The notes beneath the pieces are model-generated. The model did not search any database. It was not told the origin of the DNA and saw nothing but the letters and a program-made list of their open reading frames with translations. Shown piece by piece: positions 48,047-59,223 of a stretch of 64,000 nucleotides of DNA. This stretch comes from a bacterium (lineage in GTDB: Bacteria; UBA8248), in assembly GCA_965213685.1 (NCBI GenBank), contig CBDBZY010000018.1, positions 192,001 to 256,000 of the forward strand. The letters are read 5' to 3'. The number at the start of each line of letters is the position of its first letter. Positions within the stretch are counted from its first letter, which is position 1. The position numbers and the translations under genes were made by a program.

Positions 48047-51000
48047 TTACTGCCTACTATAGATCAGAAGTACAATAATCATCACTGAAAACGTGATCGT
48101 GATTAGAAAGATTATTTTAAGCATGAACCTCTGTGAGACTATATGGAATGGTGGTGTTTCAGCACCTGTTTCTTGTCCTGCAAGTACAGTGTGACAGAAA
48201 GAGATGCATAGTACATCCATAATGACTGGTGGAGTGTACCATAGAGAACGTAGGATTAAATGAACTTACTTTGGTGTCTTAACATTCCAGCAAATCTCCT
48301 CTTCCTCAGCACATTCACATTTTGGCCATCTTGCATTTCTGTTGCTTCTTCTGCATGTCCACCTTCAATATTGCAAATACAATATAAATGATTTGCAGTA
48401 AGTCAGCTCACACACAATGCAAACATTTACAGACACATACATGGTATAATTATTATACATATTTATAGTATATATAGTATATATATAGATGTATATTTAT
48501 ATGCATATAGTATGTGTGGCATATGCACATGTCTATACAAATATTGGCTTTAGCCTAATGTCTACATATACTGTGTGGCTCGAACTCTATGAGCTTCAGA
48601 GCACTGAATACCGCATACAACTCTTTATGTCTCATGTATGCCTCTGCAAACCACAAAGACATTCATAACGTCTTACTAAATGAAAAGTACTAAAGTGCAA
48701 CTCAGCGCAGTTGCATTGCATGCATGCTAGAACAGCCCGCACAGATAATGCAAGCATTTTTGGCTTAAGTCCATGCACTCAATTGGGCTATAGTCAAGTG
48801 TTTTGCTTTGGCTTGCATGTTGTATGGTCTGTGCACGTATGTGTGTGCACATGCTATAGTCTCGTACATGCATGCGCTTATGTGGGACCGTAATCACACT
48901 AGCTTTACGGACATGATACAAAGAGGTATATGAAACATTGCAACATGAACAAAATGGCGAACTCGAGCTTGCCAGTAAGTTAATAAACGCTTGTAACTTT
49001 TTGTTAAAAGTGCCGCTCAAGCCGCTAGTGCCTTTGGTTAGACGTCTACTAGCACCAGTCCGAAGATTAGCTCGGCAGGACAGACAGACAGACAGACAGA
49101 CAGACAGACAGACACACACACACACACACACACACACATACACACACACACACACACACACACACACACACACACACACACACACACACACACACACACA
49201 CACACACACACACACACACACACACACACACACACACACACATACACACACGCACACACAGGACAAGTACTGTAACCCTCATAGCGCATGCGCACAGAGG
49301 GTTAATGAAGCAATCCCATATGTTCAGGTCACTTGTTAATTCTATGGTATTTGGCCAGCAGCACACAACCAAGCATGCAGATCTACCTAGAGCTATGGAT
49401 ATCACTGCTCATATAACTATATAACACCATTTAATGAAGGCTATTGTGTACACCTAGGAAAGACTTTTCCCCTAAACAGTGTAACTACACAGACGTGTCA
49501 ATGCAAAAGTGCATTCCTTACCTGGTAGTTGCACAGTTCTTCTCAACCTATCAGCTGTGGCAGGCCCATAGCCTGAAGTGTGACTCAGAGCATCTGCCAG
49601 GCTTTCCCATGATGCACTGAGGTCACTGTTTATCCACTGGGTGATCATATTTGTCAGTCTGCTCACAGAGTTTGACGGGTGAGTTTCCCTGTATATCATA
49701 TACATGAATGCCTTAGTTGATTAATATGTCAATTCACATGCAGAAATAGTATTTACCTATAAAAAGAGAATCATAAGGCTGTGTTAGTAATGGTACGTTG
49801 ATAATATCACTGCGCCTAACGGCACTATTATTGGGGATTATGTTGCAATACAGCTCTGCCTAACGCACAGATTCGGAGTCTAAATTTGTTCTTAGCAGTT
49901 GCAATCCTGTGCAGTAACGCAGTAGTCTTGAAAACCACATGTGCGCAATGCACTAGCTTGATTACCAATTATGAAGTGGGCGTGCACACCTCTGTTCACA
50001 GCACATGCGCCTGCACGGCCGCCTGCGCGCAATTAATTGGCAACTGGCTTTGAAGCGAGTCAGAAACGGTTGACCGGCTTCCAAACGGGTGGAAGGTTGT
50101 GAATCGGGTCACAACATATATACATATCTGTGTCATCTTGACACTTTGCATCAAACACCAGCCAGCGACTTTACATTGTATAAAGCACTTTTAGTGGGCA
50201 TGCACTTATACGAGTGCTAGACAATTAAAAAGAGAACGGTTTGATAGACACATGGTTGCTAAAAAGAACCCTCACTGTTGCTAGGGAATGACATCAAAAT
50301 CATAAATCATGGCTGACAACAATGTATATTTGGTAAAATGCACTTGCCGTCGGATGCTTCGTGCCCTCAAATCAAGTGCTTTATCTCATATATGCACCTA
50401 TCAGCTGTGTTTATATGTATATACATTCAGTCCATGTCTTACATGATAGTGGTTATCTTATGTGATGGCACGTTTAGTTGTAAGCCTAATTTGTCCCAGT
50501 GAGCTGCAGCAAACTGAACTTCATCCAAAGCATTGATTATGTTCCTCTCAATGAAGTCCTTTATTTTCTCCTTAGCTACAAGTAGGGAACAATATATACA
50601 GTAAGACACTCCTCCCATCACTACCTCCAACTGTTACAATTGCATCAGCAACTTGATACACAACCAATGTAAAGCCTTGTGTGGGTGTTGACATAGTATT
50701 ACAAATCAATCAATACTACCATTTTGGGGGTTTATATTTTACCCCACAAACTGGTCTCATCTGTCCAGAAGCATAGTAAGGACAGGAATGTGTTGACAAA
50801 AAGAGTAATGAGGATCGACGCATGATGAGACACATAGAAGACAAGTATGGAAGGTATATCCAAACTTGCAAAACTATTATAGGGAATGGAAAAGCTACCC
50901 TCTGTTATCAGAGGTCATGCTCTATACCTCTATAGCATGCATGACAAGTATCAGATTGATGTTGTTATAAATTAAACACAACCATTAAACTACTGTGAGT

Positions 51001-59223: not shown

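Follow-up and report, generated by a model that had tools for sequence, protein, structure and literature searches.

ROCO proteins carry a Roc-COR tandem that acts as a GTP-dependent dimerising switch, and in DAPK1 the tandem is followed by a C-terminal Death domain (PMC6320773). Roc-type "AP-GTPases" with COR have been described as the counterparts of STAND NTPases in conflict systems (PMC8195603). Fusions of ROCO proteins to death-fold domains are already known from molluscs, cnidarians and sponges. Aplysia has TIR-ROCO and MyD88-like ROCO proteins (PMC9334734), sea anemones have NG1 (leucine-rich repeats-GTPase-COR-TIR) and NG3 (kinase-Roc/COR-Death-TIR) (PMC5094078), and brown algae have candidate immune ROCOs with exon shuffling (PMC11378527); NACHT-ZU5 genes have also been noted in sponges. 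The combination of Kelch, Roc-COR, ZU5 and Death is undescribed in the literature searched, which did not extend to supplementary architecture tables. Here we analyse a locus of this kind, hereafter copy B, on the minus strand of a 64,000-nucleotide stretch of DNA (the window; positions 192001-256000 of an 813-kb contig, hereafter C18), where an earlier note had proposed an intact ten-exon ROCO gene.

The output half of such a protein has its own well-described relatives. At the end of ZU5, PIDD1 has an HFS site and CARD8 and NLRP1 an SF|S site, in which a buried Phe is followed directly by the nucleophile (PMC3210808). Such acyl-shift reactions can use Ser, Thr or Cys as nucleophile, and UNC5b, which does not cleave, has Leu in place of the buried Phe (PMC3210808).

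We consider it likely that copy B is one unit of a head-to-tail array of about 16 sponge-type ROCO units, that it has been broken by a recent Ty3/gypsy insertion, and that the intact members of the array are NLR-/PIDD-like. With good confidence, the Kelch, Roc-COR, ZU5, Death architecture is a real feature of the family. Copy B itself is interrupted by a young retrotransposon and is probably non-functional.

The retrotransposon in the Roc exon of copy B

Ten minus-strand segments between 59223 and 48047 join in phase without an internal stop, and every border is AG/GT (Table 1). Starting exon 2 at 54626, as the earlier note did, gives an open chain of 1,226 amino acids plus stop. The segments, borders and phases of that chain are all confirmed at their coordinates. 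Its first intron, however, is a long terminal repeat (LTR) retrotransposon lying within a coding exon, and the locus is not an intact ten-exon gene.

The inserted element has every hallmark of the Ty3/gypsy group: direct LTRs, a target-site duplication, a polypurine tract (AAGGAAGGAGGAA) just before the 3' LTR, and the order gag, protease, reverse transcriptase, RNase H, integrase. A TGG stands 2 nt past the 5' LTR, in a primer-binding-site-like position. With its short TG..CA repeats and 5-bp duplication it is like other Metaviridae-type elements, shows nothing unusual, and is notable only for its landing site, 13 codons past the P-loop motif GAPGVGKT. Excising the element with one CCACC rejoins the frame (...GVGKTSLGYFLCNETLPP|ARTSTACMEQ...) and yields a chain of 1,214 codons with no stop, whereas with the element retained a stop comes after 40 codons of LTR sequence. 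Copy A, a paralog within the window, aligns straight over the site (7666-9058 with 53205-54597, and 9051-9260 with 59083-59292, at 97-98% identity), and an uninterrupted Roc-COR open reading frame (ORF) of 694-751 codons is found in 11 of the 14 other P-loop-anchored C18 copies examined.

The two LTRs are identical and a second copy of the element, on contig C16, is 99.76% identical, so by sequence the insertion is very recent. Because translation would stop within the LTR, we think it most likely that copy B, possibly an insertion allele, has only just been inactivated and is not an intact gene.

Could the element instead be spliced out? The earlier note had 4.46 kb (59084 to 54626) removed as an intron, adding 12 residues (LPTNEPEYTTPP) after the P-loop helix, and had the C-terminal helix of the product anchored in a membrane. 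A GT does stand right after the flank, the 3' LTR supplies an AG ahead of the open frame, the resulting chain is open and in phase, and the extra residues adjoin a disordered insert of the family. We nevertheless consider this model improbable. Its donor, CCT|GTAGTA, in which the T of the LTR's TG completes a Pro codon, agrees with the consensus at 4 of 9 positions (our own count) and is the weakest in the gene, the other donors being of GTAAGT type. In its acceptor, CCTAG|CTG, the AG belongs to the in-frame TAG stop that bounds the open frame, so an in-phase path through the element is expected by construction. What it removes is a complete, sense-oriented element with identical LTRs, which speaks for a recent insertion and not an old intron, and most other copies run through the site without a break, as described above.

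Several observations weigh against our reading of copy B as inactivated. An in-phase GT..AG path through the element does exist and might permit rescue by splicing. All four public runs that match the locus, which come from one study, contain an empty-site joint from 54589 to 59083 at high depth, with 28-46 matching letters on the shorter side. This joint may derive from paralogs about 97% identical and is therefore uninformative on the insertion. Contigs from these runs break exactly at the LTR edges, and among the matches listed none bridges an LTR-flank junction. No RNA run was found among the four.

The membrane anchor of the same model lies in the tail, IIFLITITFSVMIIVLLIY, where a 19-residue window ends 3 residues from the stop and has a mean Kyte-Doolittle hydropathy of 2.91. 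The sequence coding for the tail is rich in AT, and a mean of 2.5 is reached by chance in 39 of the window's 819 six-frame ORFs of 40 or more amino acids. Exons 9 and 10 occur only in copy B and in one other C18 unit, c455. The 3' halves of these two units are 94-100% identical, introns included, so no sign of constraint on exons 7-10 is seen. Without use of the exon 8 donor, another 15 codons stay open before a stop at about 49472, and in both copies an ATTAAA follows 36 nt past that stop (at 49435 in copy B). The hexamer is a weak hint that transcripts end there, and a poly(A) hexamer is mostly absent from 13 other Death ORFs. Independent support for the tail exons was not found, and we hold the anchor to be less likely than not.

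Domains of the unit

The identity of the Roc-COR region is established at the level of predicted fold. An AlphaFold2 (AF2) model of an intact, 97%-identical paralog has a mean predicted local distance difference test score (pLDDT) of 82.2 and a predicted template modelling score of 0.81, with a disordered insert at residues 78-159. All 29 of its best Foldseek matches in the PDB are ROCO proteins (Chlorobium tepidum Roco, LRRK1, LRRK2 and Methanosarcina barkeri Roco2), led by C. tepidum Roco 6hlu (E=5e-14) and including 3dpu, with E values from 5e-14 to 4e-5. The alignments cover about 345-590 columns, and 490-590 for chains that hold both Roc and COR. Copy B keeps the G-motifs GAPGVGKT, RTST, DCGGQ and GTFKD, and conservation of G1 (GxxGxGK), the switch-I ST, DxGGQ and T..D reaches 90% or more across 53 relatives (22-87% identical). 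At E<=0.01, Pfam recognises Roc in 28 of these 53 relatives and COR-A in 13. The ratio of non-synonymous to synonymous divergence (dN/dS) for Roc-COR is 0.22 (64 of 66 pairs usable).

Some of the evidence weighs on the other side. Copy A reaches 17.7 bits for Roc against a cutoff of 27, and copy B 20.4 bits for COR-A against 35.3. Used as a profile against PDB sequences, the family alignment yields only LRRK2 Roc at E=0.02, too weak a value to stand alone, and the evidence on fold was obtained with a paralog and with predicted structures. A STAND/nSTAND3 reading of the P-loop was rejected: its nSTAND3/AAA matches are sub-threshold and of P-loop length only, and the fold search returned Roc-COR.

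In placing Roc-COR before Death, the array, like its distant paralogs that lack ZU5, resembles DAPK1. It differs in having Kelch upstream, ZU5 and a region of about 157 residues between COR and Death, and a large tandem expansion. The upstream same-strand ORFs examined, a set that leaves some of the Kelch-Roc spacer ORFs unscanned, contain Kelch matches and no kinase or ankyrin repeats, and we therefore do not regard the unit as a DAPK1. Nor is it an NLR, since its core has the Roc-COR fold and no NACHT/NB-ARC (STAND) core.

The proposed ZU5 domain, in exon 3, is borne out by Pfam (38.6 bits where 21 are required; E=1.3e-9) and by its predicted fold. The AF2 model (pLDDT 93.8) finds as its top folds the ZU5-ZU5-UPA-DD structure of ankyrin-B (4d8o), ankyrin-R, ZO-1 and UNC5b (3g5b), followed by GAIN domains; the best structural matches of the exon (4d8o, 3f59, 3kbu, 6m3q, 3g5b and 3ud1) have E values from 5e-6 to 5e-5. 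FIIND clusters are also among the ESM Atlas neighbours (score 0.91).

The end of this domain carries a motif that is absent from the earlier account and that makes the family architecture interesting. An H-F pair, placed between the last two strands of the model, is followed by Cys in 10 of 14 array copies (KHFC in copy B) and by Ser in the other 4; H96, H149 and F150 are at least 90% conserved among 54 relatives at 31-64% identity. The sequence thus offers a Phe of the buried type, a residue of the Ser/Thr/Cys class after it at the ZU5 end, and a conserved His. Because the motif sits at the cleavage position of PIDD1, CARD8 and NLRP1 and keeps the His and Phe, self-cleavage at HF|C may well occur, a prospect we hold to be about evenly balanced. 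The nucleophile position mostly holding Cys, and not the Ser of PIDD1 and FIIND, counts against it.

Like PIDD1 and NLRP1/CARD8, the unit would combine a repeat sensor, ZU5-(UPA) and a death fold, with H-F-S/C at the ZU5 end before a beta-strand (PMC3210808). PIDD1, however, has leucine-rich repeats, two ZU5 domains and no NTPase, where the unit has Kelch and a Roc-COR GTPase. NLRP1 uses a NACHT ATPase, where the unit has the Roc-COR GTPase and, in most copies, the Cys. Ankyrins and UNC5 share the order ZU5, about 150 residues, Death; the unit lacks spectrin- and netrin-related parts and keeps the H-F where UNC5b has Leu (PMC3210808).

ZU5 exons of this type also occur in other company. A search of representative proteins with the ZU5 exon returned 1,080 matches at E<=1e-3, mostly exon-sized ORFs. 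Ten longer relatives were scanned: 8 have ankyrin repeats, and kinase plus ankyrin, RING/B-box plus ankyrin and an MMR_HSR1-type GTPase were also seen, with Roc or COR in none of the ten. This points to wide shuffling of a ZU5 cassette among N-terminal modules (for example in relatives P0164 and P0244).

Between ZU5 and Death, exons 4-6 encode 157 residues (34, 51 and 72 amino acids) at the position of a UPA domain. The earlier note called this region UPA-like, a description that found no profile support: Pfam gave no match to any of the three exons, searched singly, even at E<=10, and in a search for a paralog ORF with contiguous ZU5 and UPA the candidates end about 40 residues past HFS. Size, position and coding constraint do fit UPA, with dN/dS of 0.25 for exon 5 (at a synonymous divergence, dS, of 0.67) and 0.23 for exon 6 (dS 0.95) across 10 copies.

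The Death domain could be corroborated indirectly. A tblastn search with the joined 100 residues of exons 7 and 8 found unsplit ORFs elsewhere in the genome, of which 6 of 7 tested match Pfam Death at E<=0.013 and 4 of 7 pass its cutoff. A hidden Markov model (HMM) built from six of them matches residues 1056-1124 of the spliced protein without a gap over the exon 7/8 junction, scoring 45.4 bits where the highest of 2,000 shuffles reaches 10.3. The lack of any UPA match and the silence of Pfam on exons 7 and 8 taken alone tell against the proposed output module. The Death HMM is biased, since its members were picked by likeness to the query, and is supportive but not independent.

Elsewhere in the assembly, 11 ORFs resembling Death domains crowd into 35 kb of a single strand of contig C64 (1545269-1579976); this cluster is unrelated to the ROCO array.

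The tandem array and its turnover

HMM and tblastn searches of the assembly contigs show that C18 carries 16 Roc-COR loci, arranged head-to-tail at intervals of 40-65 kb, each on the minus strand. Kelch exons lie upstream of 14, a ZU5 exon downstream of 14 and a Death ORF downstream of 15, always in the same order, and 14 of the 16 units show the full succession of Kelch, Roc-COR, ZU5 and Death on one strand. Paralogs about 24% identical on C16 (three of them) and on C4 have Kelch, Roc-COR and Death without ZU5; those on C57 and C21 have Roc-COR and Death, and Kelch was not detected.

The in-phase junctions and the recurrence of this order uphold the earlier proposal of a multi-exon gene that combines Roc-COR, ZU5 and Death. 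Kelch exons, which that proposal had taken over from the paralog, are indeed present upstream, but the loan is unnecessary: copy B has its own at C18:257937-262406 (65937-70406 in window numbering), 1.9-6.4 kb past the window end. We did not arrive at exactly the proposed total of 4929 nt. In copy A, one chain runs from the ATG in the first Kelch exon via good-consensus sites and enters exon 1 in the right phase after 1,069 nt, a demonstration of feasibility only.

With a phase-1 acceptor and no in-frame Met upstream, exon 1 is an internal exon. The phase-1 donor of the COR exon (ACAG|GTTGGT) pairs with the phase-1 acceptor of the ZU5 exon across an intron of 102 nt. From the missing start codon, the matching phases and the order kept in paralogs, we infer that a single gene is much the likeliest reading.

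We give little credence to the alternative of separate neighbouring genes, two or three in number (for instance one each for Kelch, Roc-COR and ZU5-Death), that would have been duplicated as a block. It could appeal to the public runs, in which no RNA run ties the exons together; to the database ORF calls for relatives, which are single exons of 615-760 amino acids; to protein searches with the Roc-COR exon and with the ZU5 exon, which found no longer fused relative (weak evidence); to similar ZU5 exons that follow ankyrin repeats, kinase or RING/B-box elsewhere; and to the 5-7 kb that separate the last Kelch exon from the Roc exon. But a separate Roc-COR gene would have no start codon before its P-loop, and a separate ZU5-Death gene no Met-initiated frame in its ZU5 exon. 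The COR and ZU5 phases fit each other, order and strand are kept across the array, and in the C16 paralogs, despite their low identity, the Death ORF begins less than 400 bp from the Roc-COR ORF. ESM Atlas clusters likewise join Roc and COR-A with Death in Mollusca (56-63% of members) and with CARD in Porifera (26%).

The array also pictures the turnover of a receptor family. The Roc-COR exon is open in 12 of the 16 loci and disrupted in 4: copy B by the LTR element, copy A by an 8,744-bp insertion, c714 by a frameshift and c538 as a fragment. Both units in the window have thus been struck by what look like transposable elements. The copy A insertion, with its CACTG...CAGTG termini, looks like a CACTA/CMC-type DNA transposon; its plus-strand ORFs (4963-6582) have no Pfam match, and it is single-copy in the assembly.

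The 3' cassettes are mosaic, with two ZU5 types and three Death types in varied combinations. The intron that follows exon 6 contains a (GA)n microsatellite (50999-51100). Position 51011, within it, is where the homology of copy B with c10, c342 and c763 stops and where c455 shows a break; past that point the Death cassettes differ between units, and the microsatellite may be a boundary of recombination or cassette exchange. Identity between copy B and c455 (C18:448793-455778) is 87.9% over the Roc-COR exon but rises to 94-100%, mostly 98-100%, in the stretch that begins with the following intron and ends with the tail, which suggests recent gene conversion of the 3' half.

Kelch exons appear to evolve faster than Roc-COR, with dN/dS of 0.51 for K1 and 0.8-1.0 for K2-K5. 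The contrast is a hint only of faster sensor evolution, because these ORFs include intron flanks that push values towards 1, a caution that counts against our picture of a variable sensor.

That the retrotransposon is an assembly artefact, or that the whole array is a decaying, functionless pseudogene cluster, is scarcely credible: the contig does lie in a mis-binned metagenome assembly, a quarter of the units are disrupted, and the public-run contigs break at the LTR edges and hold the empty-site joint in every run, but exact LTR ends bordered by a 5-bp duplication are what real integration leaves behind and a mis-join does not, a joint so short on one side and so very deep is what paralogs about 97% identical would give, most Roc-COR exons are open, and dN/dS of 0.22-0.25 at dS up to 0.95 shows protein-level constraint in the family.

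Proposed mechanism, source and neighbouring features

Given the order of domains in the array, the sensor-switch-effector logic put forward in the earlier note is a fair inference. In intact members a variable, multi-exon Kelch beta-propeller would bind a ligand, and Roc-COR would act as the GTP-dependent dimerising nucleotide switch. The ZU5-(UPA)-Death output could then be opened or released, perhaps by self-cleavage at HF|C, and the freed or opened Death end might nucleate Death-domain signalling assemblies. We infer each of the functional elements of this scheme: one transcript, GTP switching, self-cleavage, a role in immunity or cell death, and membrane anchoring. By analogy, the scheme matches the "AP-GTPase" view of PMC8195603, and the tandem expansion, cassette exchange and transposon insertions resemble those of immune and allorecognition receptor families.

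A bolder version is doubtful in our estimation. In it, intact members would be GTP-gated, PIDD/NLRP1-like death platforms with a hypervariable Kelch sensor and with Roc-COR replacing the NACHT ATPase. HF|C self-cleavage at the Cys would free a UPA-Death fragment, and one sub-type would be tail-anchored on an organelle membrane like MAVS/Bcl-2. The family would then be an independently assembled sponge receptor class, diversified by tandem duplication, cassette exchange at microsatellites and transposon-driven birth-and-death.

The claim that no characterised protein has this architecture holds for the searches made, with the qualification that fusions of ROCO with Death, CARD or TIR are already present in molluscs, sea anemones and sponges. 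The array shares with those invertebrate proteins the fusion of Roc-COR to immune or apoptotic adaptor domains in lineage-specific expansions; it differs from them in that none of the available descriptions compared puts Kelch or ZU5 with Roc-COR. If intact members are single expressed proteins, a ROCO GTPase, rather than a STAND ATPase, became the switch of receptor-like death or immune proteins in early-branching animals, where it was coupled to the ZU5-death-fold output familiar from PIDD1 and NLRP1/CARD8. Such members would then offer a natural system for asking how Roc-COR governs a non-kinase effector and whether self-cleavage of a ZU5 with a Cys nucleophile is ancient.

The assembly is listed as one prokaryote (7.97 Mb in 71 contigs, 94% complete with 3.7% contamination by marker genes), and yet 22 of its 71 contigs (4.9 of 7.97 Mb) have a guanine-cytosine (GC) fraction below 0.56 and look eukaryotic, the remaining contigs being at about 65% GC. 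C18 itself has 45% GC, GT..AG-bordered introns, microsatellites and retroelements. Among relatives of the Roc-COR exon a single one is named, a hypothetical protein from the sponge Geodia barretti (E=1.6e-15), and the ESM Atlas neighbours are mollusc and sponge proteins. On these grounds we treat C18 as sponge-like host DNA binned with a bacterium, and the assembly is a mixed bin in which those 22 contigs look like animal, sponge-like DNA. The practical point is that a genome bin listed as prokaryotic would contain about 4.9 Mb of animal DNA.

Table 1. Features of copy B and copy A, in window positions
Feature	Position	Strand	Details
Exon 1	59085..59223	-	5' part of Roc exon; P-loop GAPGVGKT; phase-1 acceptor GAACAG|GC; no in-frame upstream Met
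Ty3/gypsy-type LTR retrotransposon	54597..59084	-	4,488 bp, in gene orientation; TG..CA termini
Target-site duplication CCACC, upstream copy	59085..59089	-	
5' LTR	58890..59084	-	195 bp; 100% identical to 3' LTR
gag-pol open frame	54914..58948	-	1,344 codons; PNMA/gag-like part, zf-CCHC, aspartyl protease, reverse transcriptase, RNase H, integrase (Pfam)
3' LTR	54597..54791	-	195 bp; holds the proposed acceptor CTCCTAG|CTG (first exon base 54626)
Target-site duplication CCACC, downstream copy	54592..54596	-	
Exon 2 (Roc exon remainder)	52604..54596	-	switch-I RTST, disordered insert of ~85 residues, DCGGQ, GTFKD, then COR-A and COR-B
Exon 3 (ZU5)	51980..52501	-	173 full codons; H-F-C at residues 149-151, close to the C-terminal end of the domain
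Exon 4	51795..51898	-	34 codons; first piece at UPA position; no profile match
Exon 5	51559..51711	-	51 codons
Exon 6	51282..51498	-	72 codons
Exon 7	50443..50575	-	N-terminal half of Death domain
Exon 8	49522..49688	-	C-terminal half of Death domain
Exon 9 (proposed)	48270..48362	-	basic linker (..RKRRFAGMLRHQ); acceptor pyrimidine tract weak
Exon 10 (proposed)	48047..48177	-	hydrophobic tail IIFLITITFSVMIIVLLIY, then SRQ and stop
Copy A Kelch exons K1-K5	14233..20515	-	start ATG in K1, at ~20356
Copy A Roc-COR exon	7621..9195	-	continuous at the copy B insertion site (empty site); itself cut at 7665/7666
Copy A insertion	1-7665, on to C18:190922		8,744 bp; CACTG...CAGTG termini (10/11 inverted)

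Within the 27-kb spacer that separates copies B and A, two adjacent open frames of 342 and 299 codons lie on the plus strand at 22338-24231; the first matches RVT_1 (E=3.3e-7), as in a LINE-like retroelement (LINE, long interspersed nuclear element). A degenerate 20-bp tandem repeat occupies 43870-45250, in two blocks about 630 bp apart. Upstream of exon 1, at 59286-59907, contig depth summed over the four public runs reaches about 84,000-685,000, against hundreds in adjacent bins; this roughly 1,000-fold excess marks the segment as a very high-copy repeat in those samples.

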